Counted from the stretch's first letter, positions 3,245-43,187 are shown. The stretch is DNA of 64,000 nt from a virus (IMGVR_UViG_3300045988_107889:32001-96000), one strand, 5' to 3'. A program made the numbers and translations. Notes: generated by a model from the letters alone, not told the origin.

Positions 3245-4003
3245 TTATTCCTGCTTCTCCAATACGGAGCCAGTGTTAAGCGTAATTGTGTTACCATCAA
3301 TTTTCCCGCTCAAGACGTTGCTTTCAGATTGAGAAATAATATTAAAATTGTTATCAGAAACTCCCCACCTTATACTGGTCGGGCCAGTGGAACTACCATT
3401 AACAGTAACATCAATATTGCCAACGCCAAAGCTCTTTACATCTAGCTCAATTTCAATATTACTATTATCTTCGACGCTACGATATTTACCAGTATAATCT
3501 GGTGTTTCCTTGCCACTATAGTTGATCACAAAAGAACTGTAGCCGTGATCGACTACTTTTCCATCACTCAACTCTGGCAAAAATCCAGCACCATTTGCAT
3601 AACACTTCATCACCTGATTCCTATCATCAGGGGTAGCGTTTGGTAGGGCGGCTTCGAGAAAGGAAAAAAGCTCCGAATTGAATGCGTTATCCGTACTTTG
3701 ACCAGTCGTTTTAAAATTGCAAATAAACGCGACTTCTTGTACAGAATCATTTTCGCCAACAGAATCTCTTCCTGTGGAGATTTTAATTTTAGACCCATCA
3801 ATCAGCGAAAATGAACCGCTACTATTAGTCTTGTTTAGACGCGTCATCGACCCATAATCGATAGAGAAAGTCTCGCTCCAGGCTTCGAGACTTTTATTAT
3901 ATGTGTCACAGAACTCTCCAACCGTAAAAGAACCTCCTCCGCCGCAACCAGCCAGCGATACGGCCATGCATATCGCAAGTAAAGCACCTAGTATTTTTCT
4001 CAT
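3245..4003 (-). CDS. secreted lipoprotein
   Basis: 'MRKILGALLAICMAVSLAGCGGGGS' is a signal peptide with the lipobox LAGC. Start taken at the ATG at 4003 (the ORF track starts at 4021). A GGGGGA SD lies upstream. Confidence 0.8.
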   Translation of the reverse strand: MRKILGALLAICMAVSLAGCGGGGSFTVGEFCDTYNKSLEAWSETFSIDYGSMTRLNKTNSSGSFSLIDGSKIKISTGRDSVGENDSVQEVAFICNFKTTGQSTDNAFNSELFSFLEAALPNATPDDRNQVMKCYANGAGFLPELSDGKVVDHGYSSFVINYSGKETPDYTGKYRSVEDNSNIEIELDVKSFGVGNIDVTVNGSSTGPTSIRWGVSDNNFNIISQSESNVLSGKIDGNTITLNTGSVLEKQE

Positions 4004-15031: not shown

Positions 15032-15081
15032 TGGCAAAACCTCCTTTTAAATTTGAAATGTTTTCTATTGATTATGTTACT

Positions 15082-17616: not shown

Positions 17617-18609
17617 ATGAGTAACCATACATATGTAGTCGGTGAATATACCGACTATGGTTATAAAGGTGGTGATGGTTTGTATAACGAAGATATTAAG
17701 CGGAATTTTTTGGATACGGAATGCAGTAGCTTGAAAAAGCAAAGAGATATTGCGAAAGTTTTTTCTTCTATCGCGTCGTTTGAGCAAGAGAATGGTCTAG
17801 ACATCGCTGAAATGGGCAAGAATTTGAGCGCGCAGGCTCTTGAACGTACTGGAATAAATGAGTATAGTGGAATTAGGAGTTATATTACTAGGTTAAGAGA
17901 GTATGCAAGATGGTGCGAAAAAAACAATATCTTCCCATCAATCCCCGGCGGGATTTTTGAAGTTTCTCCGGACGATGTGGATATTACAGATTCTCTAAAA
18001 GGGGTTTTGTTTAAAGACGAATTTGACTTGCTGGAGTCTATTAGATTAGTCCGTGACTTTGATTCTGGCTATCCAGAGGTTGCAGCCTTTTGTCTTTACT
18101 GGGTCGGTCTTACAAAAGACGAAGCAGTTTTGCTAAAAGACACTGACGTTGACTTGGAAAACAAGATCGTTTATGTTCATGACGGTATTGTTGCAGAAGA
18201 CTTTTCGGATGCCATTTGTGATGTATTAAACCGTTACCGTAATTGCAAATGGTCAACCCGGGCGAACGGAACTACACTCATGAGCGTTCGCAAGGATTTG
18301 TCTGTTGACACATTTCTTAAAAGGATGTTAACAGATGGTTCTAAAAAATTCGGTATGCCTGTAACAAAAACACAAATCACAGCACTATGTCAAGATGTGG
18401 TGACGGATTGTTCAGCACTTGGTCTCCCTAGTCGTCATACTTTTCAAAACGTCTGGCGGTGCGGTGGGTTCAATCGTATGTACAAGCTGGAACAATCCGG
18501 CGTGGATGTAATGAACCGCCCCACCATAGAAACGGTTTTTCGTGGAAAAAAGAATTACTACGATACACTAAGAATGTATCAATATTATAAAAAGGTCTTT
18601 GGTTTATAA
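17617..18609 (+). CDS. tyrosine-recombinase-like protein, possibly catalytically degenerate
   Basis: 330 aa. 'FCLYWVGLTKDEAVLLKDTDVDLENKIVYV' resembles box I but has T-K where Arg is expected. 'SRHTFQNVW' is HxxR-like, with a C-terminal 'YYDTLRMYQYY'. Confidence 0.6.
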   Translation: MSNHTYVVGEYTDYGYKGGDGLYNEDIKRNFLDTECSSLKKQRDIAKVFSSIASFEQENGLDIAEMGKNLSAQALERTGINEYSGIRSYITRLREYARWCEKNNIFPSIPGGIFEVSPDDVDITDSLKGVLFKDEFDLLESIRLVRDFDSGYPEVAAFCLYWVGLTKDEAVLLKDTDVDLENKIVYVHDGIVAEDFSDAICDVLNRYRNCKWSTRANGTTLMSVRKDLSVDTFLKRMLTDGSKKFGMPVTKTQITALCQDVVTDCSALGLPSRHTFQNVWRCGGFNRMYKLEQSGVDVMNRPTIETVFRGKKNYYDTLRMYQYYKKVFGL

Positions 18610-23571: not shown

Positions 23572-23648
23572 ACCAGCATAGTTTTAAATGGGAAAACAAC
23601 GGTCTCCAAAACCGTAGTTCTAGGTTCGAGTCTTAGTGCTGGTGCCAC
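23572..23648 (+). tRNA. tRNA-Trp(CCA)
   Basis: Acceptor ACCAGCA/TGCTGGT. Anticodon arm ACGGT-CTCCAAA-ACCGT. T arm CTAGG-TTCGAGT-CTTAG. Ends GCCA. Confidence 0.8.
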
Positions 23649-24053
23649 GTGCAAGTTTAATTGCACGGTGTGTAGTGTGAAAAAAGTCATATATTGCTCT
23701 ATGTATATAACCTCACGGCGTAAAAGAGGTTGACTGTCTGACCGCAGTTATTCCAGTGCAATTCTGGTTGCCGTACACGCTGCTCAAAGCGGGTGAAGAG
23801 GTGTGGCACACTCCTTCCGTGCCTCACTTATGACTTCAAGGCGGTGCAATTCCGCCTAGCAGCTCTCAATCGCTCTAGTTAACTGGTTCTGGGGCGAGGG
23901 TCAAAACCAGCAACCTAAACATTGATTGCAGACACCTGGTTAAGTACAGGCTAGGCAAGAAAGCTCTCAGGCACGGTTGGGCAACACAATCCAGCCCTAT
24001 CCTTTGGTTAGGCCGACTGATTGATAGGGCGGTTGTGGTTGCTGAACAAATAT

Positions 24054-24144
24054 CTCCCTGTAGCTAAATTGGTTATAGCTTCCAACTTATAATTGGAAGG
24101 CCCTCATAAGGTATATGGTGATTCGAATTCACCCAGGGAGACCA
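24054..24144 (+). tRNA. tRNA with anticodon UAU (nominally Ile) and a class II-like long variable arm
   Basis: Acceptor CTCCCTG/CAGGGAG. D arm GCTA-AATTGGTTA-TAGC. Anticodon arm TCCAA-CTTATAA-TTGGA. 19-nt variable region AGGCCCTCATAAGGTATAT. T arm GGTGA-TTCGAAT-TCACC. Ends ACCA. Confidence 0.65.
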
Positions 24145-24195
24145 CGATACCACGATAAAAATCTAATTCCATAAATAAGAAAGTGAGGAACTAAT

Positions 24196-24849
24196 ATGAA
24201 CAAAGAAACTATGACCGTCCATAAAGCTCTTGCGGAGCTGAAAATTTTGGACGCTAGAATTTTCAACGCCACTTCTGGCAAAACATTTGTCGCCGCGAAG
24301 AAGGTGAGCGACAAAAAGATCGGCGGTGTGTTGGTCGAAACCCTCAAGAAGGATATGAAGTCTGATTATCAGTCTGTTACGGACTTGATTGCTCGTCGGA
24401 CTGCCATTAAGAGAGCAGTTGTGCTCTCTAATGCCAAAGCTAAGGTAGTAATTGGTGGTGAGACCTATACTGTGGCAGAAGCTATTGAAATGAAGAACCA
24501 TGGCCTCATGGCAAAGAGAGACTTGCTGGATGTAATGGTTCGGCAGTATGAAAAGGCTCGTGCCGAGGTCGCCAAACACGAAGGCGAGTGGATTGAAGCG
24601 AAAGCCGAGCAATACATTATGAATTTCCTTCAGTCGCAGCCCAAAGAGGCCAAGACAACCAAGGATTCTGAGGTCGTTAAGCGGTTGAGAGAAGAGTATA
24701 TTGCCAACAATACGTATGAACTCATTGATCCGCTTGACATTGGTAATGAAATCAAGGTTTTGAGCGATTGGATTGACGCGTTTACTGCGGATGTAGATTC
24801 TCAGCTGTCTGTGTCCAATGCGACCACTACAATCACCGTAGAATACTAA
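24196..24849 (+). CDS. hypothetical coiled-coil protein embedded in the tRNA cluster
   Basis: 217 aa. SD GTGAGGA. No motif recognised with confidence. Confidence 0.7.
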   Translation: MNKETMTVHKALAELKILDARIFNATSGKTFVAAKKVSDKKIGGVLVETLKKDMKSDYQSVTDLIARRTAIKRAVVLSNAKAKVVIGGETYTVAEAIEMKNHGLMAKRDLLDVMVRQYEKARAEVAKHEGEWIEAKAEQYIMNFLQSQPKEAKTTKDSEVVKRLREEYIANNTYELIDPLDIGNEIKVLSDWIDAFTADVDSQLSVSNATTTITVEY

Positions 24850-25028
24850 AATAATCAACTTGCTGCAACCCGAAAACCTAAAACGGTAACCCATCGTGCT
24901 GACGGCACTTGGTTCGATGTAAAAATGAACAAATATGTGCCAACTACAAGGCAAACTTGAAATTTTGTGCTTGTAAAAAGATTGGGCGGTTAATCCAAAT
25001 CTCTTATAAAAAGAAGATATTTGCTGTA

Positions 25029-25190
25029 AAGCTCAAATTTCAAAGCTCGAATTTCAAAATTCAAGGCTCAAAGATCTTCAGAAGATTAAAGTTCAAGGGT
25101 CAACGTTCAATGGTTAAAGTTTTACAAAATCCTGGGTTAATGGTTTGGGTCAGTTATCAACGCCCACGGGTCAACCACCAGGCTGGGTTG
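25029..25190. repeat. degenerate short-period repeats
   Basis: GCTCAAATTTCAAA / GCTCGAATTTCAAA / ATTCAAGGCTCAAAG / GTTCAAGGGTCAACGTTCAA, followed by GGGTTAA..GGGTCA..GGGTCA..GGGTTG. Confidence 0.6.
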
Positions 25191-25205
25191 TAGCAAGTTC
25201 AATAT

Positions 25206-25290
25206 GCGGGATTGGCGGAATTGGTAGACGCATCGTGTTTAAGTCTCGATGTCGAAAGACGTAGGAGTTCGAGTCTCCTATCCCGTACCA
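25206..25290 (+). tRNA. tRNA-Leu(UAA)
   Basis: Acceptor GCGGGAT/ATCCCGT. Anticodon loop TTTAAGT. Variable arm TGTCGAAAGACGT. T arm AGGAG-TTCGAGT-CTCCT. Ends ACCA. Confidence 0.85.
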
Positions 25291-25439
25291 AAGAAAAGCC
25301 CATAGTTTGCGGACTATGACACCTGAAAAGTGGCGGTTTGCTTCTGGTAGACCGTAGTAGTGTGTTGACATCCTGGAAGAGACAGGAGTTCCCCTTTTTG
25401 ATCCCCCTTACATAGCTACCCCGCTTTGCGGGGTAGCGT

Positions 25440-25515
25440 GGCCGATTAGTTTAAATGGTAAAACGGCGGATTTGTACCCCGCAGATGTCGAGTTCGAGCC
25501 TCGCATTGGCCTCCA
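25440..25515 (+). tRNA. tRNA-Thr(UGU)
   Basis: Acceptor GGCCGAT/ATTGGCC. Anticodon loop TTTGTAC. T loop TTCGAGC. Ends TCCA. Confidence 0.8.
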
Positions 25516-25516
25516 T

Positions 25517-25590
25517 GCTACTATAGTTTAATGGTTGAACGGTTGTTTCGTAAGCAACAGGTTCCAGTTCGATTCTGGGTAGTAGCTCCA
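25517..25590 (+). tRNA. tRNA-Thr(CGU)
   Basis: Acceptor GCTACTA/TAGTAGC. Anticodon arm GTTGT-TTCGTAA-GCAAC. T arm TCCAG-TTCGATT-CTGGG. Ends TCCA. Confidence 0.85.
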
Positions 25591-25593
25591 TAT

Positions 25594-25668
25594 CTGGGTG
25601 TAGCGCAATGGAAGCGCTCCTGATTTGGGATCAGGAGGTTGTCAGTTCGAGCCTGACCACTCAGACCA
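25594..25668 (+). tRNA. tRNA-Pro(UGG)
   Basis: Acceptor CTGGGTG/CACTCAG. Anticodon arm CCTGA-TTTGGGA-TCAGG. T arm GTCAG-TTCGAGC-CTGAC. Ends ACCA. Confidence 0.85.
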
Positions 25669-25670
25669 AT

Positions 25671-25745
25671 GCAGGCGTAGTTCAACGGCTAGAACACCGG
25701 TCTTCCAAACCGGAAACGCGAGATCGGCACTCGTCGCCTGCTCCA
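25671..25745 (+). tRNA. tRNA-Gly(UCC)
   Basis: Acceptor GCAGGCG/CGCCTGC. Anticodon arm CCGGT-CTTCCAA-ACCGG. T arm GCGAG-ATCGGCA-CTCGT. Ends TCCA. Confidence 0.8.
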
Positions 25746-25851
25746 TATCAAGCAACAGAAAACGATTCTCCTACCTGTTATTGTTGATAAATCACCTCCT
25801 TTCTTTACATAGCCTGGAATGGCGTTAAACTCTGCTCTGCTTGATTTATAT

Positions 25852-25925
25852 AGCGCCGTAGCATAACGGTAATGCAACGGACTTTGACTCCGTAAACGGT
25901 AGTTCGACACTATCCGGCGCTGCCA
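25852..25925 (+). tRNA. tRNA-Gln(UUG)
   Basis: Acceptor AGCGCCG/CGGCGCT. Anticodon arm ACGGA-CTTTGAC-TCCGT. T arm GGTAG-TTCGACA-CTATC. Ends GCCA. Confidence 0.85.
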
Positions 25926-25983
25926 CGTTCGTTTTATACGGACACTTGCTTTCATTAACCGGCGGTACCACCGCCGGTAACAT

Positions 25984-26068
25984 GTGGGCGTGATGTAATT
26001 GGCAAACATGCGAGATTTAGGTTCTCGTGTCGAAAGATGTGCGGGTTCGAACCCCGTCGCCCACTCCA
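25984..26068 (+). tRNA. tRNA-Leu(UAG)
   Basis: Acceptor GTGGGCG/CGCCCAC. Anticodon arm CGAGA-TTTAGGT-TCTCG. Variable arm TGTCGAAAGATGT. T arm GCGGG-TTCGAAC-CCCGT. Ends TCCA. Confidence 0.85.
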
Positions 26069-26132: not shown

Positions 26133-27005
26133 ATGACAGTGACAGCTTATGAAGAATTGTTGAGCAAGTTGTTGTTCGAAGAACGGAACGGTGGACAGTT
26201 GGCGTATGCTTACGTGTCTCCGGAAATGGCGACGGGTTTGTTGGCTATGTCCGGCGGCAATCGTCCGATCAGTAAGAGCACTGTGAATAAGTACAAGTCC
26301 CATATGATGAATGGCACATGGGATGAAGATACTCCGACTGGCTTTATTATGTTTGATAAGGCTGGTGTTCTTATCGACGGGCATCACCGGCTCGAAGCAG
26401 TGAAGCGCTGCGGTAAGACAGTAAAGATGTTCTTCCTGTTCAATATGGAACGCAGTCCGTACATTGACCGGGGTAGGGCGAGAAGTGAAGCCGACGCTTT
26501 GTGTATGGCCGAGGGCGGAAACAGAGGAAAGATTTCTTCTTACAAGCGCTCGGTTGCAATCTGCATGGTGCTGAATGAGTTTAGTGCGAGGCACTTGGAG
26601 AATGAAGCTAAGAGAGCGGACATGATTTCGAAGCACATCGCTGAATTCTCCTGGGTTAATAGTTTCTTGAAGGTGAGACAGAGAAAACTTGGCACGGCTC
26701 CGGTCACAGCTGCCATGTATCTGGCGAAAGAAGCCGGAGCGAGCGATGTTAAGCTCGAATACTTCTGGAATGTTCTCCAGACTGGTTATGCTGAGTCTAG
26801 TTTGGATAGGCAGATTGTCCGCTTGAGAGATTGGATTAAGGATTCTACTATTGATGGCCGGTGCAAGCATTATCGTCACCGTGTGTTCTTGACGACCTCT
26901 TATGTGTTGTCCAGATGGTTGGACGGCAAGGAAACCAAAGGCGTTCCCGATCCTGAGTGCTTGGTTGTTTGGAACAACGGTCAGCAAAGAATTGATAACG
27001 CATAA
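26133..27005 (+). CDS. ParB/sulfiredoxin-like nuclease-domain protein
   Basis: 290 aa. 'NRPISKSTVNKYKSHMMNGTW......VLIDGHHRLEAV' is a ParB N-terminal-domain DGxHR box. SD TAGGAGG. Confidence 0.8.
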   Translation: MTVTAYEELLSKLLFEERNGGQLAYAYVSPEMATGLLAMSGGNRPISKSTVNKYKSHMMNGTWDEDTPTGFIMFDKAGVLIDGHHRLEAVKRCGKTVKMFFLFNMERSPYIDRGRARSEADALCMAEGGNRGKISSYKRSVAICMVLNEFSARHLENEAKRADMISKHIAEFSWVNSFLKVRQRKLGTAPVTAAMYLAKEAGASDVKLEYFWNVLQTGYAESSLDRQIVRLRDWIKDSTIDGRCKHYRHRVFLTTSYVLSRWLDGKETKGVPDPECLVVWNNGQQRIDNA

Positions 27006-27039
27006 ATAGAATCGCAATTTGAACAAACGTCAGTAACTA

Positions 27040-27430
27040 CAGTTAATAACCAACAAAAACATTCGCATTTTTTCTCAAAAAAAATGAGAAGCTATTTCCG
27101 GAACGGGATAGTAATATATTGCCAGAGGAGAGCATCTCGCTGCCAAGCCTGATGGCAGTACCGCCGAGCGACTCGTGCATCCGCCAACCCAGCCGCAGGT
27201 CATCACAAGAGCAGACGCGAAAAAAAAAATGCCCACCACGCAGTCGCCCCGCATCAGAAAGGCACAAGGCTCGAAGCGACATGGAAGGTCGCAACGGTAC
27301 AACTATAGGCAAACGCACCCTGCAAGCAACGCAAGTACATTATGGCGCAAGCCACCTAACGACATCGCTCGATTTCCTGATTTCCTGAGGCCCATATCTA
27401 GGAGTGTAATGTTGGTTTACGACTGAGTTA
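27040..27430 (+). ncRNA. ORF-free, T-poor A/C-rich segment A (candidate structured RNA; paralogue of 32880-33320)
   Basis: No SD-preceded ORF. It contains an A-loop hairpin TTCTCA-A7-TGAGAA (27072-27090), CCGGAACGG (27098-27106) and the box CATCCGCCAACCCAGC (27178-27193). All three recur in the same order upstream of the RT gene. Confidence 0.4.
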
Positions 27431-27458
27431 ATAATACATGAAAAAAGGAGTACATAAC

Positions 27459-27848
27459 ATGGAAATTATCGTATGTGGTAACGCAGTAACGCTCAAGAGT
27501 GCTTTCACTCTTGAAGAAATCAATCGCGCAGCTCTGTATCGGCCTAAGTCTGTACAGCTGCTGGACGAAGATGGCAACGCACTGTTTTACACTCTCGCTG
27601 GCGAGAGAGGAGTAGTAGCACCGACCGGTATTATCTATGAGGCTGAGTCTTGTGATGGCTCTGGTCGTGCGGTCGTAACAGTGAGTCTTATTACCGAAGC
27701 TGACCGTTCCGTACGTGAGGTTGTTGCCGAGAGATATGCTTCTGTTATCGAGAAGGTAGAAAAGATTGAAGCCCAGGTGCGCGAAGCGCTGGAAGAGATC
27801 GACGTTATGATGGCACGGGTCAGTTCCAAGATCGTAGTAGCTGGCTAA
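27459..27848 (+). CDS. hypothetical protein ending ...KIVVAG
   Basis: The ATG at 27459 has SD AAAGGAG (the ORF track starts at 27438). 129 aa with a C-terminal Gly. Confidence 0.7.
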   Translation: MEIIVCGNAVTLKSAFTLEEINRAALYRPKSVQLLDEDGNALFYTLAGERGVVAPTGIIYEAESCDGSGRAVVTVSLITEADRSVREVVAERYASVIEKVEKIEAQVREALEEIDVMMARVSSKIVVAG

Positions 27849-27889
27849 AACAAATAAGCATAGATGTAATAACAGAAAGGAAGTATAAC

Positions 27890-28129
27890 ATGATTATTGT
27901 TAATGTTCGTAGCACCACCCGGCGTTTTGATGGTCAGGCTGTAGATGAGAGCGTGGAAACCCCTCGTTCTCTGTTCGAGAAGATCGGAATTGAGTGCAGC
28001 CGTAGCGTAAATTCTCTTTCCGGCACGATTCTGACGCCTGATGATATGAGTTGCACTTTTGCCGAACTTGGTGCCGCTGGTGTTTGTACTCTGAGTGCTA
28101 TTGTTAAGGCGCAAGGTAACGCGATCTGA
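27890..28129 (+). CDS. small beta-grasp-sized protein (ubiquitin-like candidate)
   Basis: 79 aa. 'MIIVNVRS...' then 'LSGTILTPDDMSCTFAELGAAGVCTLSAIVKAQGNAI' resembles a ThiS/MoaD/Ub-like layout, with a Gly three residues from the end. SD GAAAGGAAG. Confidence 0.7.
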   Translation: MIIVNVRSTTRRFDGQAVDESVETPRSLFEKIGIECSRSVNSLSGTILTPDDMSCTFAELGAAGVCTLSAIVKAQGNAI

Positions 28130-28255
28130 TTCGAGTTAGCACAATCTACGAGGCCGGACAATGTCCGGCCTCGTACATAACACAGTGAGTTGCTGGGAGG
28201 GCATTCGGTTACGTCGGATGACCTGCCAAGAGTTCATAAAGAAAGGAGAAGATAT

Positions 28256-29671
28256 ATGTTTTCAAATTGTTTGAAGCGCAGTGAAGTTTTAGTGCTGGCC
28301 CCAGAGCTGGAGTCTGAGTTTTCTAATATTGCTGGCGACGGGACGTTCAAAGGCGATGACTTTGCGTTGGCAATGGCTCGGTTGTTTTTGAAGCCAAGAG
28401 TTCCGGCGGACGTGTGCATCACGGTTAGAGTGGTGGATTCTAATTGTGCTGATTGGATTACGTGGATAAAAGACAAAGAGCGTTTTTCGGAGGTGACTTC
28501 TCAAGACAACACAATTACATTTTGCGTGTGTGATAAGGTTAAGGCCGTAGAAACTTTAGTCAGTAATATGAAATGTGCGAGCAGTTGGAAAGAGAAGACG
28601 GCAAGAGAGCTGAATCTAATGAAAGAACGACTCGGTATCATACTGAGAATTTTCAGTAATGAAGAGAGGAAGAGTACGGTTGTCCTTACCGACGTGGATA
28701 ACTATGGCTCGTGGCATTACCTAGTGTGTCTTTTCAATGTATTCTGCCCATGGTACATTAAAGACAGGACTGAAGCGGAGTCAAAGTTTATTAAGATTCT
28801 GTCCAAAGAAGACTCCGGCATGAGTGTAATCTGTAAAGCGATGAACGATATGGTTGCCGCTGCTGTGGACGTGGCCTCAGCTAAAAAGAGATATTACCTT
28901 TATGGCTATGAGGGAAAGCTAAGGAACGTACAGAGGGAAAGATACACAAAGAAGATGGAGAGTGCAAGAAGTCAGATCAATAAATTGACGTCCGATTTGA
29001 GAGATTGGTATAGAGAATACGAAGGTTGGTCTTTGTTGGTGGCAGCAATTGACAACAGTAATGTTGAGAGCAAGAACGAGTTAATGGATTATTTTCTGTC
29101 GAACAAAAATGTGTCTGTTGAGAGCGGTGACAAAGATGGGAATATCGTATATGTTGTAACTGGTTATATGACACTGTTTGATCCAGAGATTGCGAGAGAG
29201 TACATCAACAATTGGTCGTCGATTTTTTATACGCAGTCTTCGTATGCGGGCCTGACAGAAAGTGATACTAAAAAGTTAATGACAGGGATTTTCATTGACT
29301 CTGATATCAAAGTAAGAATGTGTTCCGCATGGAGACTTTCTTTCGGAGGAGGGGTACTACCCATCGTGGCATATGGGTATGGCTGTGAATACAACAGCTA
29401 TCTCCCCAACACACACCTTGATAAATATGGTTGCATGGGGAGCTGGCAACAGGCGTTAGAGAAATCTTGCGACAAATGTGACTACGTTTATACGGTAGAC
29501 ACGACGTGTGCCGAAAGCGGGAATCTGAATCTTAGTGATACTGTCGTATTGAGATCATTCCTTGAAGAGTTGTTGAGAGAAGGCGCTGTAGTATTGGAGT
29601 TGCCGGATGGGCGAGTAGTTAATTACATCGACGCAATTAAATGGATAAAGGAGAATAAGAGCAATGAATAA
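28256..29671 (+). CDS. large hypothetical protein; C-terminal region has an E2/UBC-like 'PN-x7-C' motif
   Basis: The ATG at 28256 has SD AAAGGAGAAG. 471 aa. 'YLPNTHLDKYGCMGSW' has the same Asn-to-Cys spacing as HPN-x7-C of UBC folds. This is motif-level evidence only. Confidence 0.7.
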   Translation: MFSNCLKRSEVLVLAPELESEFSNIAGDGTFKGDDFALAMARLFLKPRVPADVCITVRVVDSNCADWITWIKDKERFSEVTSQDNTITFCVCDKVKAVETLVSNMKCASSWKEKTARELNLMKERLGIILRIFSNEERKSTVVLTDVDNYGSWHYLVCLFNVFCPWYIKDRTEAESKFIKILSKEDSGMSVICKAMNDMVAAAVDVASAKKRYYLYGYEGKLRNVQRERYTKKMESARSQINKLTSDLRDWYREYEGWSLLVAAIDNSNVESKNELMDYFLSNKNVSVESGDKDGNIVYVVTGYMTLFDPEIAREYINNWSSIFYTQSSYAGLTESDTKKLMTGIFIDSDIKVRMCSAWRLSFGGGVLPIVAYGYGCEYNSYLPNTHLDKYGCMGSWQQALEKSCDKCDYVYTVDTTCAESGNLNLSDTVVLRSFLEELLREGAVVLELPDGRVVNYIDAIKWIKENKSNE

Positions 29672-30350
29672 GGCAACTAATGCAACGGATTTGTTGGCTG
29701 CGACAAATCCGTGCAAAATCGTATACAGTAAGAAGGCATGGATGAAGACGTGTTTGCTTGTTATGAATAGGAATCTTGAGGTTGGATGGCACGGAGTTGC
29801 AAGAAGGTTGGAAAATCCAGCTGAGTTTATCGTGGAGGACGTCTTGGTATTCCCCCAGAAGGTCACGTCGGCAAGCACCGAACCTGAAGATGCGGACTAT
29901 GTGAACTGGCAGGATTCTCTTAACACGGAAATATTCAATAAGGTTCGGTTGTACGGGCATTCTCATGTGAACATGGGTGTCAGTCCATCTTCTACGGATA
30001 TAAAGTATAGAGCAGATTTGCTGACAGACGTTGATGATTTCTACGTCTTTCAGATTTTCAATAAGAAAGGCTACATATCCTCACAGGTTTATGATGTTAG
30101 AGAAGGCATCCTGTACGAAAGCGACAATGTGGAACTCGCAGTGGAACGATGGAACCCCGCTGTATATGATTTGTGCAGAGGGTTTTTCGATAACATTGAC
30201 CGGTTTGAGAAGGTGGACGTGCGTGATGTACAGGATGGAATCGAGTGGATCATGAACGCAGCATCCGAGTTTGAAAAATTCATGGAGGACGCAGATAAAA
30301 TTATTGATGAGCGGCCCGATTGGCGTGACGGTAAGATGTTAATTAAGTAA
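29664..30350 (+). CDS. JAB/MPN (JAMM) metalloprotease
   Basis: 'GHSHVNMGVSPSSTD' fits H-x-H-x7-S-x2-D exactly, with an upstream Glu in 'EFIVEDVLVFPQ'. The gene overlaps its upstream neighbour by 8 nt. Confidence 0.85.
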   Translation: MNKATNATDLLAATNPCKIVYSKKAWMKTCLLVMNRNLEVGWHGVARRLENPAEFIVEDVLVFPQKVTSASTEPEDADYVNWQDSLNTEIFNKVRLYGHSHVNMGVSPSSTDIKYRADLLTDVDDFYVFQIFNKKGYISSQVYDVREGILYESDNVELAVERWNPAVYDLCRGFFDNIDRFEKVDVRDVQDGIEWIMNAASEFEKFMEDADKIIDERPDWRDGKMLIK

Positions 30351-30523
30351 AAAACATATGTGCCTGTACAGATATGTTAAATTACATATCACTCTTGTCG
30401 GAACGAGGGAGTAACAAATGGCTGTGTCGCTTCAAAAGTTTTCCGCTCTGGGAGTAGGAAAACTTTTTGAACTTAAACAGCTGGTTAGCTGTTCAGAGGT
30501 ACATAAGAAAGGAGAAGACCGGT

Positions 30524-30865
30524 ATGGAGGTATATTGTGTGATAACAGAAACAGACCAGGGTATTGATTTATCCGGTGTTTATTGGAATTTGGAGAGTGC
30601 GGTAGAACACGTGAAACGTAGGTTTTATTCAGTGTTTCAAGAATACGTCGATGATGGATGCGAAATGATTGAAGGTGACAATTTTAATGCTCCAGATAAA
30701 TACGGCGCGACAATTTATCTGGAACCGGACGACTATTGGATTTGGCGTGTTTACTTTGGCGAAGTAAGAGATGAGTGCCTGGTGAGTGGGCCGAACGAAG
30801 TGGTGCCGCCGCTAGAAGGGAAGCGTGTTGACGAAGAGACGCTTATGAATTGTTTGCTGCTATAG
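30524..30865 (+). CDS. CLLL-tail family protein 1
   Basis: 113 aa from the ATG with SD AAAGGAG. Ends '...VDEETLMNCLLL'. Confidence 0.7.
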   Translation: MEVYCVITETDQGIDLSGVYWNLESAVEHVKRRFYSVFQEYVDDGCEMIEGDNFNAPDKYGATIYLEPDDYWIWRVYFGEVRDECLVSGPNEVVPPLEGKRVDEETLMNCLLL

Positions 30866-30875
30866 AGGTGATATG

Positions 30876-31214
30876 ATGTTTGAACTTGGGCAGAAAGTTA
30901 CGCTTGCCCCAAAGTCATGGGATGAATTTCGGGGTGCTTTAATGGAGTTGTTTGCGAGAGAGATGATAGTAGATGAATTCTCAACTACTCATAAAGAAAT
31001 GATATTGGTTACAGGGGTGCTTTATGGGGAAGGCGATTCTTGGTTTAACGACCTTCTAATAAATGGAGGTGAGATTATCAAGTGCTATGCTACTGGTTGG
31101 TATATGGTGAATATAAATGGAGTAAAACTGAAATTTCACGAAAGCGTGTTGTGTCTGAAAGAAGACATGAGGTCAGTTGATGAAAAATTGTTCATAAGTT
31201 GCTTATTATTGTGA
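30876..31214 (+). CDS. CLLL-tail family protein 2
   Basis: 'MFELGQKVTLAPKSWDEF...' ends 'VDEKLFISCLLL'. SD GAGGTG lies 5 nt upstream. Paralogue of protein 3. Confidence 0.75.
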   Translation: MFELGQKVTLAPKSWDEFRGALMELFAREMIVDEFSTTHKEMILVTGVLYGEGDSWFNDLLINGGEIIKCYATGWYMVNINGVKLKFHESVLCLKEDMRSVDEKLFISCLLL

Positions 31215-31223
31215 GGTGATATA

Positions 31224-31556
31224 ATGTTTAGACCTGGGCAGCGGGTTGAGCTTATTCCCAAAACGTGGGATGAATTTAATGATAACTTACGGGCGGTATT
31301 TCCGAATGGAGCTGTGTCGCAGAGCGTAGACATCATCACAAACGAAAGATTTATATACGCCGACGATGTGATGTACGCGGAGGGCGATCCTTACCTCAGA
31401 GAGTTTATAAGAGACGGCGGCGAGATCGTTGAGTATGAACTTGGCGGTTGGTACAGGATAAGGGTTAGCAAAAAAGAGATGTCTTTCTATAAAAGTGTGT
31501 TGCGGTTAAAGCAATCTATTGATGAGCAGGTTTTTATGAACTGTTTGTTGTTGTGA
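31224..31556 (+). CDS. CLLL-tail family protein 3
   Basis: 'MFRPGQRVELIPKTWDEF...' ends 'IDEQVFMNCLLL'. SD GAGGTG lies 5 nt upstream. Confidence 0.75.
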   Translation: MFRPGQRVELIPKTWDEFNDNLRAVFPNGAVSQSVDIITNERFIYADDVMYAEGDPYLREFIRDGGEIVEYELGGWYRIRVSKKEMSFYKSVLRLKQSIDEQVFMNCLLL

Positions 31557-31570
31557 TAAGAGGTGGCGCT

Positions 31571-31840
31571 TTGAATATCGTAGCTGGTCAGAAATTTAGA
31601 GTTAAAAAGTGGTCAGAAAGCAATTCTGACCGCTTTTTTACCAGTAGCCATGAAAAGTATTGCGGGAAAACATTAACGGTGAGAGAAAAAGGTATACATA
31701 GAGGTGTGAGCGGTTACGTTCGCCCGATAATTTGGGCGTACGAATGTAGAGAGGTCGTGTGGTTTTCATGGATGATAGAACCTATTGAGGACCGCCGTCG
31801 TGTTAATGAAAATCTGTTTCTAAGCTGCTTGTTGTTGTAG
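31571..31840 (+). CDS. CLLL-tail family protein 4
   Basis: TTG at 31571 lies 5 nt after GAGGTG (the ORF track starts at 31553). '..GQKFRVKKW...WMIEPIEDRRRVNENLFLSCLLL'. Confidence 0.7.
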   Translation: MNIVAGQKFRVKKWSESNSDRFFTSSHEKYCGKTLTVREKGIHRGVSGYVRPIIWAYECREVVWFSWMIEPIEDRRRVNENLFLSCLLL

Positions 31841-31847
31841 GTGATGT

Positions 31848-32189
31848 ATGAAATTTGAAGATATGTATGTTGGGCAAAAGATTAGGGTACGGACTTTAGA
31901 CGACATGGTATCTGACCCTGATTTAACGTATAGACTTGATAAGTCTTTTAAAGTAGCGACGATCAGGTCTAAGGATAATACAACTCATTTGAGCTTAATT
32001 CGTAAGACAATGCGTTATTGTGGTACAGCTGTGACGGTGTTCTCATTAACAGAAAATCTTGCACCAACAGAGTGGAGGCATGTTTATATAGAAGAAGATA
32101 ATCAATATTACCCATGGGAGTCTTGGATGTTTGAACCGATTGAAAGTAAGGTTGATAGTGATGTATTCTTGAGTTGTTTAATGTTATGA
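31848..32189 (+). CDS. CLLL-tail family protein 5
   Basis: '..VGQKIRVRTLDDM...WMFEPIESKVDSDVFLSCLML'. Paralogue of protein 4. Confidence 0.75.
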   Translation: MKFEDMYVGQKIRVRTLDDMVSDPDLTYRLDKSFKVATIRSKDNTTHLSLIRKTMRYCGTAVTVFSLTENLAPTEWRHVYIEEDNQYYPWESWMFEPIESKVDSDVFLSCLML

Positions 32190-32202
32190 GGAGGCATGAA
32201 AA

Positions 32203-32871
32203 ATGAATTTGTCGAAGAGTATTGAGTTCTTTAACCCCACAAAGGTCAAAGAAAGAGTACATATCATCGGCTGTGGCGCGTCCGGTTCCACTGTAGCCGA
32301 ATTGTTGGCAAGAGCTGGGCTTGAGAAGGTTACTCTGTACGATTTTGACAAGGTTGAGTCGCACAATATCGCGAATCAGATGTTCAATGATAGCGACATC
32401 GGTAGAAATAAAGCTGAAGCCGTGAAAGATATGATGTTAAGTATCAATCCTGATGCAAATGGTATTGAAGTAGTTCAGGAGGGGTATACCAACCAGCGTC
32501 TGTCCGGCTATGTCTTCCTTATGGTGGACAACATTGATCTCCGCAGAAAAATTTGCGAAGAAAATGCTAGAAACCCGTATATCAAAGCTGTGTTTGATAC
32601 CAGACTTCGGCTGACGGACGCGCAACACTTTGCGGCTGACTGGAGTTCTAGTGCGATGGTTGAAAATCTGATTAACTCCATGCAGTTTACTCAAGAGGAA
32701 GCTCTGGCTGAAACTCCTCGATCTGCATGTAACCTGGAGCTTAGTATCGCTCCTTCCGTGCGGATGATTTGCTCTTGTGCAGTAGCAAACTTCATGAATT
32801 TTGTGAATGGGCGTTCGATCAAGAAGATAGTTTTGATCGACGCCTTTGATTTTACTATGGAAGCATATTAA
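32203..32871 (+). CDS. ThiF/MoeB/HesA-family E1-like adenylyltransferase
   Basis: 'RVHIIGCGASGSTVAELLARAGLEKVTLYDFDKVESHNIANQMF...DIGRNKAEA' is a Rossmann GxGxxG plus the D.D.V..sN..RQ box. 222 aa. SD GAGGAGG. Confidence 0.85.
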   Translation: MNLSKSIEFFNPTKVKERVHIIGCGASGSTVAELLARAGLEKVTLYDFDKVESHNIANQMFNDSDIGRNKAEAVKDMMLSINPDANGIEVVQEGYTNQRLSGYVFLMVDNIDLRRKICEENARNPYIKAVFDTRLRLTDAQHFAADWSSSAMVENLINSMQFTQEEALAETPRSACNLELSIAPSVRMICSCAVANFMNFVNGRSIKKIVLIDAFDFTMEAY

Positions 32872-32879
32872 ATATTAGT

Positions 32880-33320
32880 TGTTTGAGGTGGAAATTTCGT
32901 GTCGCCACGCGCCTTAATGGCTAAAGAGATGCAGGGGAATGGCACGCCTGCTAACAACCAATTCAATCTAAATATCTGAAAGCACTTTCTATTTAAAAAA
33001 AATAGAAACTCTTACCGGAACGGAAGAGTGGCACATCGTCCGAAAGAGGAACCCCGCTGCGTGCGATAGCAAACCAATACTTGGTGCCCTCCAAGAAGGC
33101 TTAACACCCCGGTGGCATCTTCTCTGATGAGAAGCATCGCCCGAACAACAGGAAAAACCAGAAGGATATTCGTTCGACAGGTTCAACATCCGCCACCAGC
33201 AGGGGTATCCGGCAAACAATAAACGCCAAGTCAGGGATTTCACCGTCTCAGACGACGACAAGCTCCGCGATGAGCATCTCGTACTGACATCCAAATCCAT
33301 ATATAGTTTCAGATAAAAGC
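32880..33320 (+). ncRNA. ORF-free, T-poor A/C-rich segment B directly upstream of the RT (candidate RT-associated ncRNA)
   Basis: It contains an A-loop hairpin TTTCTATT-..A8..-AATAGAAA (32986-33008), CCGGAACGG (33015-23) and the box CATCCGCCACCAGC (33187-33200). It is on the same strand as the RT and ends at the RT's SD. The only ORF here is an SD-less antisense one. Confidence 0.45.
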
Positions 33321-33332
33321 AAGGAGAATAAT

Positions 33333-34499
33333 ATGATTTATGTAACAGCAAGAATTACAGAGCCGTATAAGCAGATTTCTTTAGAGGATATTATGTCTGC
33401 GCTGCTTCAAGATAAACATGTGAGGGAATCGAGATCTCTATATACTAGAACAGTTACATATGAGAGACTGCCCGAGAGAATCCTGGCAGGGTTTGACACG
33501 GGGAAAAAGATTGAGCTGCTGAGAGCATTTAACAAAAAGCATCAGGAACTGCTTGAAAGCGATCTTCATACGCATTACCACAAGTTTTTTATCCCGAAAA
33601 AGAGCGGCGGCATGAGAGAGATTAACGCGCCGGACGACGAGCTGATGAATTGTCTGCGAGAGCTAAAACTGCTGTTAGAATCTGAGTTTTATGCGAGCAG
33701 CCACGCCGCTGCGTACGCTTATGTCAAAAACAGAAGCAGTGTAGATGCAGCAAAAGTCCATCAGTGGAACAAGAGTAAGTGGTATTTAAAGACTGACATC
33801 AGCGGTTTCTTTCCCAACACTACTCCAAAGTTTGTATGGAACGCGCTGTCTACAATTTATCCGTTCTGTCTCATTATGGAGCACAAGAACGGGAGAGAGG
33901 AGCTTAAAAAAGCTCTGTCGCTCTGTTTCTTAGACGGCGGCCTGCCTATGGGGACACCGATCAGCCCGATGCTGACCAACCTGATTATGATTCCATTTGA
34001 TTTTGAGTTCAGTAAGTTTCTGCGCAGCCTACAGGACCCAGCGAACAGCCCTGATAGAAAGGGTAGAAGGTTCGCGTATACCAGATATGCTGACGACATG
34101 AATATTAGCTGTGGTATTGAATTTGATAAGGGGTTTATTATTAGAAAGATTGAAGAGCTATTTAGGCTGTTTGGAGCTAGTTATATCATTAAAGACGAGA
34201 AGACTCATTACGGCCCGTCGTATCATAAGAATTGGGTACTCGGTGTGATGATCAACAAGGACAACCAGATCACGATTGGGTATAAGAAGAAGCGCAACTT
34301 CGAGGCGATGCTTTTCAATTACGCGAAGGACAGAAAGAGCGGAACTTATTGGCCTCTTGAGCAACTGCAATATGTGCTCGGTCTTATGAGCTACTATCGA
34401 ATGGTTAACAGAGGAAGTATTGATGGAGTTATCACTCGCTATAGTCAGAAGTTTGGCTTTGATATTGAAGCCACGATGAAGAAGGATCTCAAAAACTAA
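33333..34499 (+). CDS. retron-type (or Abi/DRT-like) reverse transcriptase
   Basis: 'FFIPKKSGGMREINAPDDEL', 'KTDISGFFPNT', 'GLPMGTPISPMLTNL', 'YTRYADDMNIS' and 'NWVLGVMINKDNQITIG' correspond to RT motifs 1-7, including YADD and a VTG-like box. SD AAGGAGAA. Confidence 0.85.
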   Translation: MIYVTARITEPYKQISLEDIMSALLQDKHVRESRSLYTRTVTYERLPERILAGFDTGKKIELLRAFNKKHQELLESDLHTHYHKFFIPKKSGGMREINAPDDELMNCLRELKLLLESEFYASSHAAAYAYVKNRSSVDAAKVHQWNKSKWYLKTDISGFFPNTTPKFVWNALSTIYPFCLIMEHKNGREELKKALSLCFLDGGLPMGTPISPMLTNLIMIPFDFEFSKFLRSLQDPANSPDRKGRRFAYTRYADDMNISCGIEFDKGFIIRKIEELFRLFGASYIIKDEKTHYGPSYHKNWVLGVMINKDNQITIGYKKKRNFEAMLFNYAKDRKSGTYWPLEQLQYVLGLMSYYRMVNRGSIDGVITRYSQKFGFDIEATMKKDLKN

Positions 34500-34776: not shown

Positions 34777-35187
34777 ATGGTAGATTGGAAGAAAAGTTTT
34801 CAATATGAAGGTATTCACTGGTGGCGGAACGTGTTTGGGATACCTTATTACTTTAAAGAGCGGAGGTACCTTCTGAAACACGGATTCACCAGAGAAGCAG
34901 AATATGATATGCCACTTTGGTTCATCAAAACGATGACGAGAGTAATGACCAGATACTCAGATACACGATGGGGAATCCCAGGCGGATATACTGATGAGGA
35001 ATGGCAGGCGGTTGTTGATAAGATGATTGAATGCCTGAAGAATATGCGGGCGTCAGAATGGTTTGAGAAGGCTCCCGAAGAGATGAGCCTGCTAGAGAGA
35101 GATATGTGGGCACAAAATATGGCCGACAAATACAAGAACGACTTCTTTGATCTGTTCAAAGAAGTCTTTTATCTTCTATGGGATTAG
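34777..35187 (+). CDS. hypothetical protein
   Basis: 136 aa. SD TGGAGGT. Confidence 0.7.
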   Translation: MVDWKKSFQYEGIHWWRNVFGIPYYFKERRYLLKHGFTREAEYDMPLWFIKTMTRVMTRYSDTRWGIPGGYTDEEWQAVVDKMIECLKNMRASEWFEKAPEEMSLLERDMWAQNMADKYKNDFFDLFKEVFYLLWD

Positions 35188-43042: not shown

Positions 43043-43187
43043 TAGGTGTTTTATGTACAATTTTTATGATGATTATAAAAACCCTATTTCGGAGATTGAA
43101 CAGGAACAAATACATACCCAAGCACAGAGTTTGAGCTGGTAATGCGTAGAAAGACTAGTGAAGATAGGTAAAGACGAGGTGAATATT

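Follow-up and report, generated by a model that had tools for sequence, protein, structure and literature searches.

A conserved phage gene block joining a retron-type reverse transcriptase to E1-like, JAMM and probable ubiquitin-like proteins

Introduction

Mestre et al. 2020 are said to have distinguished 13 types of retron. Retron systems consist of a reverse transcriptase (RT), an msr-msd non-coding RNA (ncRNA) and an effector (review PMC8632793). The type II CBASS Cap2/Cap3, Bil and Bub operons are bacterial antiphage systems made up of an E1, an E2, a JAB or peptidase and a ubiquitin-like protein (Ubl; PMC11601596).

The DNA analysed here (the window) is a 64,000-nucleotide stretch of a virus (IMGVR_UViG_3300045988_107889:32001-96000). 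A first-pass annotation had described positions 26133-32871 as a cassette of ParB, Ubl, E2-like, JAMM and E1 genes resembling PRTRC-type systems, with an RT as a neighbour, and was aware of no characterised phage example; none was found in the literature searched here either. The flagged genes are half of a widespread, undescribed module linked to a retron, in which the RT is a fixed member with its own ncRNA.

Results

ORF calling in the window recovered every ORF that had been listed for 26133-32871, all in one direction on the + strand (Table 1). A synteny survey of the kind that the first-pass annotation had proposed, run on phage and MAG loci (~190, all independent), showed a single conserved block, p136–p79–p471–JAMM–ThiF–RT. 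Among the 118 JAMM-anchored loci, the six families are encoded on the + strand throughout and at fixed offsets (JAMM in 118, ThiF in 114, p471 in 110, p136 in 106, RT in 105 and p79 in 103), and the next genuine family is found in 46 only. The E1-like ThiF, the JAMM protein and the probable beta-grasp protein are co-located in all related genomes that were inspected. Independent anchoring on the RT gave the full block in 67 of the 72 loci with sufficient upstream sequence. The pairwise identities of the five block proteins other than p136 co-vary (r = 0.69-0.90; 0.83 for ThiF and RT). Five distant loci carry JAMM and ThiF without an RT, so the RT is not required in every relative; three of them have a large protein upstream (a p471 homologue in L114, and ~500-aa proteins that escape detection in L112 and L115), and one has a weak ThiS-like neighbour. 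The phages with this module measure about 50-170 kb; the present one encodes 9 tRNA genes and a Thg1-like enzyme, and has ArdA near the module.

Table 1. Features of the module and its surroundings in the window
Feature	Coordinates	Strand	Basis
ParB-like protein, 290 aa	26133..27005	+	phrog_5931 at 3e-32 (unknown function); phrog_1033 ParB-like, E=6e-4
Retron-type ncRNA unit A	27048..27417	+	Upstream of p136; a1/a2 repeat, msr-like hairpins
p136 family protein, 129 aa from ATG at 27459, first block gene	27459..27848	+	Fixed position in related loci
p79, probable ThiS/SAMP2-like beta-grasp protein, 79 aa	27890..28129	+	Profile and hhalign
p471, three-part protein, 471 aa	28256..29671	+	Family alignments; AF2 pLDDT 83
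JAMM/MPN metallopeptidase, 228 aa	29664..30350	+	Invariant motif, AF2 model, Foldseek
Five small proteins, shared tail ..VDExLFxSCLLL	30467/30524-30865, 30873-31214, 31224-31556, 31553-31840, 31848-32189	+	
Minimal ThiF/E1-like adenylating enzyme, 222 aa	32203..32871	+	PF00899, E=5e-24
Skipping-rope RNA (Rfam RF02924)	32878..32958	+	50.3 bits vs gathering 36.7; model positions 1-80 of 80
Retron-type ncRNA unit B	32973..33315	+	a1, G 32982, SL1, SL2, variable region, a2
Retron-type RT, 388 aa, last block gene	33333..34499	+	PF00078; PADLOC

The ThiF protein is a true E1-family protein, and the Pfam check agreed with its annotation as a ThiF-type E1 (85 bits, cutoff 28). Its best family matches are ThiF/MoeB, and PADLOC E1-E2 models of the Cap2 type match its ThiF domain at up to 3e-17. 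The Rossmann adenylation domain has the GxGxxG motif and the Mg-binding Asp (G23, G25, G28, D47, D49, K70 and D109 are invariant), and a candidate thioester cysteine, C176 (..SAC..), is unchanged across 24 diverse members. In MoeB/ThiF, the Arg of the N-x-x-N-R-Q motif contacts the ATP phosphates. This Arg is replaced in the present family by an invariant N58 (HNIANQ), a loss that might alter or abolish canonical adenylation.

The gene for the 228-aa protein starts 8 nt before the end of p471. The residues E39, H99-S-H101, S109 and D112, which form the motif E-x(n)-H-x-H-x7-S-x2-D, are invariant in 33 diverse homologues, and the AF2 model (pLDDT 84) has Rpn11, CSN5, BRCC36 and PfJAMM1 as its top PDB matches in Foldseek, each with probability 1.0. 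By motif and predicted fold, this is a true JAMM/MPN peptidase, as annotated.

The 79-aa protein had been flagged as being of beta-grasp size. The best PDB matches of its profile are all Ubls, namely SAMP2 (E=0.014), PF1061 and ThiS, although at E = 0.014-0.4 only; hhalign P values were 0.0015 for ThiS and 0.009 for ubiquitin, compared with 0.33-0.43 for reversed sequences. These weak but consistent statistics suggest that p79 is probably a ThiS/SAMP2-like beta-grasp protein. Its tail is not that of a typical Ubl: in place of a C-terminal Gly-Gly or Gly, the family has ..VKAD[NS]A, followed by 0-3 further residues (..VKAQGNAI in the window), with K73 invariant. The ..VVAG end of the 129-aa protein, also singled out, was not confirmed as a family feature: the C-terminus of the p136 family is variable and has no conserved Gly; p136 is unrelated to p79 and has no match in PDB or Pfam.

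A UBC-like Asn-x7-Cys motif had been reported in the 471-aa protein. Its residues are indeed present (N385 and C393), and across 55 diverse sequences H387 and C393 of the C-terminal domain never vary and N385 is mostly conserved, but this spacing alone is not diagnostic and an E2 fold was not recovered. Foldseek of the AF2 model against PDB returned nothing at E<=0.001, a Pfam scan of the 55 members found no E2 family, hhalign against UBE2D2 gave a probability of 0.3%, and the profile matched only coiled-coil noise in PDB; the UBC/E2 assignment is not supported. By structure and profile, p471 matched neither an E2 nor anything else in these searches, and its family comprises 2373 clusters at 50% identity.

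The RT scored best in PADLOC with RT_II-A (6e-41) and RT_I-A (6e-39), the top 25 matches all being retron RT models. Its best NCBIfam match, retron_St85_RT (9e-48, 163 bits), is under the cutoff of 235. With retron RTs as best matches and scores below the curated cutoffs, the RT is placed in the retron clade and in no curated family. It is preceded by an ncRNA unit of ~340 nt that opens with the inverted repeat a1 and a G, continues with a pair of hairpins, of which one shows covariation, and closes with a variable region and a2. In unit B, a1 is TATCTGAAA (32973-32981) and a2 is TTTCAGATA (33307-33315), with G 32982 as the candidate branching G; a gap of 17 nt separates the unit from the RT start, and its MFE z-score is -3.5. 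Covariation in SL2 (84.5% of cells paired) reached a value attained in 0/500 shuffles, and scored 0.62 against at most 0.22 with partners slid. Unit A, in which AACCAACA (27048-27055) pairs with TGTTGGTT (27410-27417), matches the covariance model R1 at 27059-27150 (25.1 bits, E=0.0034) and is 83% identical to unit B over 36 nt; it has no G after a1 and an MFE z-score of only -0.6, and is a weaker copy, possibly a decayed one.

Across the related loci, nhmmer found 291 matches to the units, without exception on the + (gene/RT) strand. A perfect inverted repeat of at least 8 nt is present in 162 of 202 unique units (median distance 276 nt; 12% at random positions), and in 149 of these 162 (92%; control 33%) a G comes directly after a1. 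An a1/a2-type repeat was found in 75 of 90 RT-upstream regions and in 41% of shuffles. Copies within one genome carry differing a1/a2 sequences, while their internal hairpins show conservation together with covariation. The usual retron architecture of one ncRNA per RT is not followed: most related loci have 2–8 units (1 unit in 22 loci, 2 in 28, 3 in 55, 4 in 4 and 8 in 4) and the window has two. One unit always lies just upstream of the RT, further units begin 10-25 nt past the RT stop, and in some loci units are found inside the protein operon (between p79 and p471 in L055 and L064).

The skipping-rope RNA does not belong to the conserved block; among related loci only the closest relative and L097 have its conserved core, and 7 distant loci lack the RNA. 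This RNA, the two structured RNA units and the place of the RT in the block do not appear in the first-pass annotation.

The ParB-like protein is likewise a lineage-specific neighbour outside the conserved block, with homologues in 7 of 88 related loci, closest relatives only. The ParB fold ascribed to it is weakly backed, by the phrog_1033 match only; Pfam, NCBIfam and PDB searches with this protein gave no match. In the proposed scan of TIGR03734-03742, ThiF reached 35.4 bits on TIGR03736 (PRTRC-type ThiF), against a cutoff of 144.75, and the models for PRTRC ParB and proteins A-F (TIGR03734, 03735, 03737-03742) had no match at E<=1 among the ten proteins scanned. Given these scores and the few loci with ParB, membership in PRTRC is not supported.

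The five adjacent small ORFs at 30467-32189 do share an end, [VI][DN][ES]xx[LVF][FM]x[NS]CL[LM]L. A screen of 14,974 ORFs (117 loci and the window) for this tail yielded no plausible genes beyond these five and their orthologues in 3 close relatives. The gap between JAMM and ThiF is at most 100 nt in 148 of 188 loci and holds inserts in 35, and several proteins inserted at this junction have acidic-hydrophobic tails. Homologues of the tail-tagged proteins are mostly encoded at other places in the locus; they do not keep the CLLL end, and their acidic-hydrophobic tails vary in sequence and in distance from the C-terminus. The CLLL tails are a lineage-specific form of the acidic-hydrophobic tail and the proteins are lineage-specific JAMM-ThiF inserts. 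The ORFs and their common end thus stand, but the reading of the tails as ThiF/E1 substrates is not supported, since neither the CLLL end, the tails nor their placement is constant.

Discussion

We read this region as one instance of a phage module that is widespread and comprises six genes and RNA, in which a retron of a new type is joined to p79, ThiF, JAMM, p471 and p136 as a ubiquitin-like activation/deconjugation set (rough probability 0.55). The composition of the module is solid, and from it we infer the following mechanism. In each ncRNA unit, the RT would reverse-transcribe the variable part to give msDNA, priming at the G after a1, as the sequence hallmarks suggest. JAMM would trim the 0-3 residues beyond the ..VKAD[NS]A tail of p79, and/or strip p79 from targets; ThiF would adenylate the p79 C-terminus, perhaps holding p79 on the invariant Cys176; and p471, with a fold that is not E2, would fill an E2 or effector position through the invariant Cys393/His387. 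The RT-msDNA complex would control the conjugation machinery in the way that effectors of known retron systems are controlled by msDNA, or alternatively would be a partner or a target of that machinery. The tail-tagged small proteins would be variable accessories, probably docking via their shared tail. The module may serve in defence, protecting the lysogen against other phages, or in counter-defence against host immunity.

To our knowledge, no biochemical link is known between RT or msDNA and Ubl chemistry, and descent alone within one phage lineage can conserve gene order. Points that weigh against the retron-linked module as set out above are the missing Gly-Gly of p79 and its weak statistics as a Ubl, the dissimilarity of p471 to E2, the lost NRQ Arg, the RT-less loci, and unit A, which matches weakly and has no G. 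A bolder version, in which an array of msDNAs that differ in their variable regions is a programmable scaffold or sensor set directing when or where E1/p471 attaches p79, or in which p79 or the tail-tagged proteins are covalently joined to msDNA, is a long shot; either arrangement would make this a viral ubiquitin-like system guided by nucleic acid.

The model of the first-pass annotation, a self-contained PRTRC-like or CBASS/Bil-like E1-E2-JAB-Ubl system acting against host Cap2/Bil-type conjugation and unrelated to the RT, draws on the presence of an E1, a JAMM and a probable Ubl, on the Cap2-type matches of the ThiF domain and on the nearby ArdA. We consider it unlikely: the PRTRC models fail, ParB is not conserved, no E2 is detectable, and the RT with its ncRNA is conserved as much as E1 and co-evolves with it. 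A sulfur-carrier or small-molecule pathway is less probable still. Here ThiF would adenylate p79 as a ThiS/MoaD/CysO-type carrier and JAMM would resemble Mec+ or QbsD, the product modifying a metabolite or a nucleic acid such as tRNA or msDNA; however, p79 has no C-terminal Gly-Gly, p471 resembles no such enzyme, and searches with the block proteins detected neither a rhodanese, a cysteine desulfurase or a PP-loop ATPase nor any other partner for sulfur transfer, even though the ThiF/MoeB matches of E1, the ThiS and SAMP2 matches of p79, the tRNA genes and the Thg1-like enzyme would all suit it. SAMP2 is also active in sulfur transfer.

Least probable of all is that the RNA units are MITE-like repeats or leader/processing elements instead of retron templates, with another substrate for the RT and with shared ancestry alone accounting for the adjacency of RT and cassette. 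Several copies per genome, terminal inverted repeats and intergenic sites speak for such elements, but all 291 copies are on the RT strand, a1/a2 differ between copies in the same genome while the hairpins are kept and covary, 92% of units have a G after a1, and one unit always abuts the RT start.

Compared with known systems, the retron-linked module agrees with retrons in having an RT of the retron clade, accessory genes in the operon and an ncRNA directly upstream that is flanked by a1/a2 with G after a1. It differs from them in an RT under every curated retron family cutoff, in usually having 2-8 ncRNA units per single RT, in its occurrence on phages of about 50-170 kb, whereas known retrons are in bacterial defence islands, and in its partners E1, JAMM, Ubl, p471 and p136. 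We know of no described retron type with such partners, and a literature search on retron and ThiF returned no relevant paper.

The window recalls the ParB-related, ThiF-related PRTRC cassettes in having a ThiF-family protein near a ParB-like protein, but its ThiF is far under the PRTRC cutoff, proteins A-F and PRTRC ParB are unmatched in it, and most related loci are without ParB. Unlike CBASS Cap2/Cap3, Bil and Bub, the module has no recognisable E2 or CD-NTase, its E1 is a stand-alone 222-aa protein, the tail of its probable Ubl is not Gly-terminated, and it is phage-encoded and tied to an RT; like them, it brings an E1-like domain, matched by Cap2-type models, together with a deconjugating peptidase in a conflict-associated operon. 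In archaeal SAMP/UbaA/JAMM1 sampylation, the SAMPs end in Gly-Gly and there is no p471, p136, RT or ncRNA, but the two share a minimal E1, a small ThiS-like Ubl (probable in the module), a JAMM and the lack of a canonical E2, and SAMP2 and PfJAMM1 rank among the top matches of p79 and JAMM, respectively.

Gene layout and phage setting

Every gene from the tRNA array to position 34499 was called on the + strand of the window, and this run contains six genes that recur together in related phages (hereafter, the block). In order, they encode a 129-aa protein (family p136), a 79-aa probable ThiS/SAMP2-like ubiquitin-like protein, or Ubl (p79), a 471-aa Cys/His protein (p471), a 228-aa JAMM peptidase, a 222-aa E1-like enzyme (ThiF) and a 388-aa reverse transcriptase (RT). 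The surrounding DNA is that of a phage, encoding a primase-helicase, NrdD, exonucleases, two integrases, ArdA, a Thg1-like enzyme and an NAD-dependent ligase. At the protein level, it is 97-98% identical to its closest relative, an IMG/VR contig of 107.6 kb. Megablast of the window against GenBank phages gave no DNA-level match, and tblastn with the JAMM protein matched one record, which is unannotated.

The 64 kb of the window hold two integrase-family genes together with a gene for an MrpR-like recombinase, which suggests that the phage is temperate or has a plasmid-like way of life. The DNA polymerase gene is interrupted by a group I intron, and the same phage that carries the nine-gene tRNA array encodes the Thg1-like 3'-5' nucleotidyltransferase. 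The Pistol self-cleaving ribozyme of the window and a RAGATH-16 RNA in a related phage locus (L017, 1876-1948 (+), 89.8 bits) show that orphan structured RNAs are abundant in these phages. The ParB-like protein was assigned solely from a PHROG match at E = 6e-4 and a DGHHR motif read from the sequence.

Features of the window, with positions in nucleotides
Feature	Position	Strand	Remarks
Integrase-family gene	656-1681	-	
Integrase-family gene	14141-15037	-	
Pistol ribozyme, RF02679	17449-17526	+	66.9 bits (gathering score 34.5); just 5' of MrpR-like gene
MrpR-like recombinase	17617-18609	+	
tRNA array	23572-26068		nine tRNAs, including a 91-nt tRNA-Ile(UAU)
ParB-like protein	26133-27005	+	
Non-coding gap, 430 nt			between ParB-like gene and 129-aa gene
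RNA unit A	27048-27417		between ParB-like gene and p136
p136 member, 129 aa	27459-27848	+	AAGGAG 8 nt 5' of start
p79, 79 aa	27890-28129	+	
p471, 471 aa	28256-29671	+	
JAMM, 228 aa	29664-30350	+	start overlaps p471 gene
Five small ORFs	30467-32189	+	
ThiF, 222 aa	32203-32871	+	
Non-coding gap, 461 nt			between ThiF gene and RT gene
Skipping-rope RNA, RF02924	32878-32958	+	full-length, 50.3 bits; 6 nt past ThiF stop, 15 nt before a1
RNA unit B	32973-33315		
5' repeat arm, a1 (TATCTGAAA)	32973-32981		
3' repeat arm, a2 (TTTCAGATA)	33307-33315		ends 17 nt before RT start
RT, 388 aa	33333-34499	+	
136-aa protein	34777-35187	+	two genes past RT
Thg1-like enzyme	43158-44057	+	PF04446, 5.5e-29
DNA polymerase, first half	55974-57971		phrog_405 match
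Group I intron, RF00028	57895-58206	+	82.9 bits
ORF between polymerase halves	58260-58898		
DNA polymerase, second half	58957-60090		phrog_405 match

Conservation of the block

Scanning with the JAMM alignment revealed a relative in 301 viral contigs, 80 of which were taken into the comparison, and in 30 MAG contigs, mostly of Clostridia, Oscillospiraceae and Lachnospiraceae from gut samples. Searches with iterated HMMs of the window proteins recovered the order p136, p79, p471, JAMM, ThiF, RT at essentially every locus. When all ORFs of 60 aa or longer from 118 loci were clustered all against all without supervision, the six block families were the only widespread + strand families (JAMM in 118 loci, ThiF in 114, p471 in 110, p136 in 106, the RT in 105 and p79 in 103). 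No other genuine family exceeded 46 loci, the other frequent clusters being antisense shadows of the six. A scan anchored on the RT gave 276 viral stretches with an RT relative, of which 80 were taken; among the 72 with at least 5.5 kb upstream, the block was complete in 67 and ThiF adjoined the RT in all. Since the pairwise identities of JAMM, ThiF, RT, p471 and p79 correlate (r = 0.69-0.90, p136 left out), the block evolves as a unit.

The first-pass annotation had described a cassette resembling PRTRC-type ubiquitin-like conjugation systems, with the RT as a neighbour. Co-location of its p136, p79, p471, JAMM and ThiF genes in related genomes is confirmed by the synteny around both anchors. 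The RT is no mere neighbour, being present in 105 of the 118 clustered loci and next to ThiF in all 72 of the RT-anchored loci with that much upstream sequence. The PRTRC resemblance was rejected on a scan with PRTRC profiles, and a ParB-like homologue is found in only 7 loci.

Five distant loci carry JAMM and ThiF without an RT. In three of these, the large upstream protein is a p471 homologue (L114) or a ~500-aa protein not detected as such (L112 and L115); L114 also encodes a weakly ThiS-like protein downstream. Pfam searches on neighbours in the distant loci gave weak hints only.

ThiF and JAMM

ThiF matches Pfam PF00899 at 5e-24, and its nearest solved relatives are MccB, UBA5, MoeB, E1s and Cap2. 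The GxGxxG glycines, D47, D49, K70 and D109 are invariant in 24 diverse family members, and the profile match and these adenylation residues bear out the earlier call of a ThiF-type E1. Cys176, also invariant in the 24 members, is a candidate thioester cysteine. Throughout the ThiF family of the block, an invariant Asn (HNIANQ) replaces the Arg of the N-x-x-N-R-Q motif of E1, MoeB and ThiF enzymes.

The 228-aa protein has no match in Pfam, and the motif E...HSHVNMGVsPSstD is invariant in its family of at least 75 proteins. Rpn11 provided the only PDB matches to the family profile, and a structural model (pLDDT 84) matched Rpn11, CSN5, BRCC36, PfJAMM1 and a Caldiarchaeum Rpn11 homologue at probability 1.0. 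Given the invariant motif and the structural match, the protein does not lack the metal site, and its identification as a JAMM protease, made from the motif alone in the first-pass annotation, is supported by motif, profile and model alike. Most homologues beyond the window lineage (e.g. P0023, P0028, P0049) end in long tails of low complexity, with abundant Tyr, Gly and Asp (such as ..YGGYGGYYGQK or ..DDYY..), in place of which the window JAMM has a helical C-terminal extension.

p79, p136 and p471

The p79 alignment has a ThiS-like pattern (MIkVtV...T.r..Le..gi......v.LnG..L...dld.tf..lG......L..VVKADnA). The best PDB matches to its profile were SAMP2, PF1061, ThiS, the ubiquilin UBL and SAMP2 again (E = 0.014-0.4), and hhalign aligned it in register with ThiS (P = 0.0015) and ubiquitin (P = 0.009), compared to 0.33-0.43 for reversed sequences. 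This weak evidence is consistent with a ThiS-like Ubl. The proposed beta-grasp nature of the 79-aa protein is retained to that extent, although the family ends not in Gly-Gly but in VKAD[NS]A plus 0-3 residues, with the Lys invariant.

The p136 family is conserved, with a variable C-terminus (..ITVA, ..VVAG, ..ITVE), and has no match to anything known in Pfam and PDB searches. The ..VVAG end to which attention had been drawn is thus one variant among several. Iterative HMMs cross-matched p136 and p79, which was treated as profile drift; a second Ubl was ruled out by an hhalign probability of 0.4% between the two families, and the proteins are unrelated.

The window copy of p471 contains the motif P-N-P-H-x5-C-x-G, in which H387 and C393 are invariant across 55 sequences, each only 11-27% identical to it. 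The PN-x7-C motif that had suggested a UBC-like protein is therefore present and largely conserved, but the E2 fold was negative in five tests. Foldseek with the pLDDT-83 model found no PDB structure at E<=0.001, and its only match in BFVD was an uncharacterised homologue. The Pfam scan placed UQ_con or Prok-E2 families in 0 of 55 members, hhalign against UBE2D2 gave a probability of 0.3%, and the profile matched only coiled-coil noise in the PDB, from long central helices. The model is based on 16 sequences, as a word-indexed search with the 55-sequence alignment gained a single sequence. Because the structure, Pfam, hhalign and PDB-profile comparisons were all negative, p471 is not called an E2; it is a protein of no recognised fold with a likely Cys/His active site. 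The family is very large, comprising 2373 clusters at 50% identity, 1912 of them below 1e-10.

Small tail-tagged proteins

The five small proteins between JAMM and ThiF are paralogue pairs plus one odd member, and the tail is the only feature common to all. The CLLL end is confined to the window and three close relatives, and the L003 and L010 orthologues of the fifth protein run on beyond the motif with different ends (..VDSDVFFELFNAIGRYENEFVEEY); CLLL was therefore rejected both as a CaaX prenylation box and as a C-terminus for recognition by the E1. Since the terminal residues are not conserved, the tails are not substrates for C-terminal carboxylate adenylation; a shared docking peptide would be the simpler reading. 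In 22 other loci, homologues of the fourth and fifth proteins are encoded 3' of the RT, among RNA units; their acidic stretches are followed, at variable distance from the C-terminal end, by xDxFLxxh motifs. JAMM and ThiF are separated by at most 100 nt in 148 of 188 loci; inserts lie between them in 35, and several of the inserted proteins bear similar tails. The 136-aa protein encoded past the RT also has an acidic-hydrophobic C-terminus (..NDFFDLFKEVFYLLWD) like those of the small tail-tagged proteins.

The RT and its RNA units

The best 25 PADLOC matches of the RT were all retron RT models (RT_II-A, 6e-41; RT_I-A, 6e-39), and the best NCBIfam match, retron_St85_RT (9e-48), scored 163 bits, below the cutoff of 235. 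Because of these matches, the RT is placed by sequence within the retron clade, though in none of the curated families.

A perfect 9-nt inverted repeat (arms a1 and a2) lies 5' of the RT gene; with an estimated chance expectation of ~0.5 such pairs per 540 nt, a single pair could be chance. Relatives share this geometry with differing repeat sequences: a perfect repeat of at least 7 nt, its 3' arm ending within 45 nt of the RT start, was found in 75 of 90 non-redundant RT-upstream regions (41% of shuffles), and a G directly follows the 5' arm in 55 of the 75 (versus 26%). Alignment of the first ~95 nt past a1 from 21 diverse loci revealed a1-G, hairpin 1, hairpin 2 and GUAACAAnUUG..AGGA. Of the 8 pairs of hairpin 2, 7 show compensatory changes; 84.5% of cells are paired (65% in shuffles, with 0 of 500 reaching the observed value), and the covariation score is 0.62 (at most 0.22 with partners slid). 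By the covariance model, unit B scored 39.2 bits (E = 2.5e-6; MFE z-score -3.5). Unit A scored 25.1 bits (E = 0.0034; z-score -0.6), has an 8-nt a1/a2 pair without the following G, and may be decayed.

The skipping-rope RNA in the same gap belongs to an orphan class reportedly tied to a nearby protein by Weinberg in 2017. It is absent from the distant block relatives checked and, being without conservation in related loci, was ruled out as part of the retron RNA.

The 5'-domain covariance model gave 134 hits across 85 sources and another 81 across 63 additional loci, all on the + strand, and nhmmer over all loci gave 291 matches. One unit always precedes the RT; additional units start 10-25 nt past the RT stop at a spacing of ~300-400 nt, each with its own G and its own a1/a2 pair of differing sequence. 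In L055 and L064, a unit is sited between p79 and p471. A perfect repeat of at least 8 nt is present in 162 of 202 unique units (80%, median distance 276 nt; 12% at random positions), with a G after a1 in 149 of the 162 (33% in the control). That the hits share one strand, that the repeats are specific to each copy and that the G is conserved argues against the units being MITE-like repeats. One unit was counted in 22 loci, two in 28, three in 55, four in 4 and eight in 4. The largest arrays (L004, 13071-16719; L122, 7144-10792) have seven or eight retron-type units after one RT, some directly abutting the start or end of small genes.

Possible function and comparison with known systems

The composition and conservation of the block, the identities of its E1 and JAMM enzymes and its retron hallmarks are observed directly, and we hypothesize how the parts may work together. 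ThiF would activate the C-terminus of p79, JAMM would trim or remove p79, and p471 would take a transfer or effector position via Cys393/His387. The RT would make msDNA from each RNA unit, and the RT-msDNA complex may be a regulator or partner of the protein machinery, on the model of retron systems whose effector is restrained by RT-msDNA (review PMC8632793).

The block may serve in defence, or in counter-defence or the phage life cycle. The integrases of the phage favour defence; retrons are defence systems, as are, to our knowledge, all characterised bacterial E1/JAB systems. Fixation of the block in a large, diverged phage group and its early-region position near ArdA (near ArdC/polyvalent-protein genes in L004) favour counter-defence or a life-cycle role.

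Work on phage-host conflict has treated retrons apart from bacterial ubiquitin-like operons; here the two form one co-evolving block, carried by phages and not by the host, in at least 300 viral contigs; p471 alone spans ~2,400 protein clusters at 50% identity. The block offers a clonable system for questions on the role of msDNA and on target choice by minimal Ubl systems, and natural multi-template retrons may be of interest for retron-based genome editing. Full-text literature searches, which left many subscription papers outside and so give absence of evidence only, returned nothing relevant on retrons with ThiF, JAB or ubiquitin-like proteins, on RTs with ThiF, JAB and phage, or on phage-encoded or multi-ncRNA retrons.

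We classify the block as a retron for which neither the partner module nor the number of template RNAs has a precedent. It can equally be described as an E1/JAMM/Ubl system in which no E2 is recognisable, and would add a family of that kind. We know of no earlier retron with template-RNA arrays for a single RT, of which the block would be the first. A retron type whose partner module is non-toxin-like would also be added.
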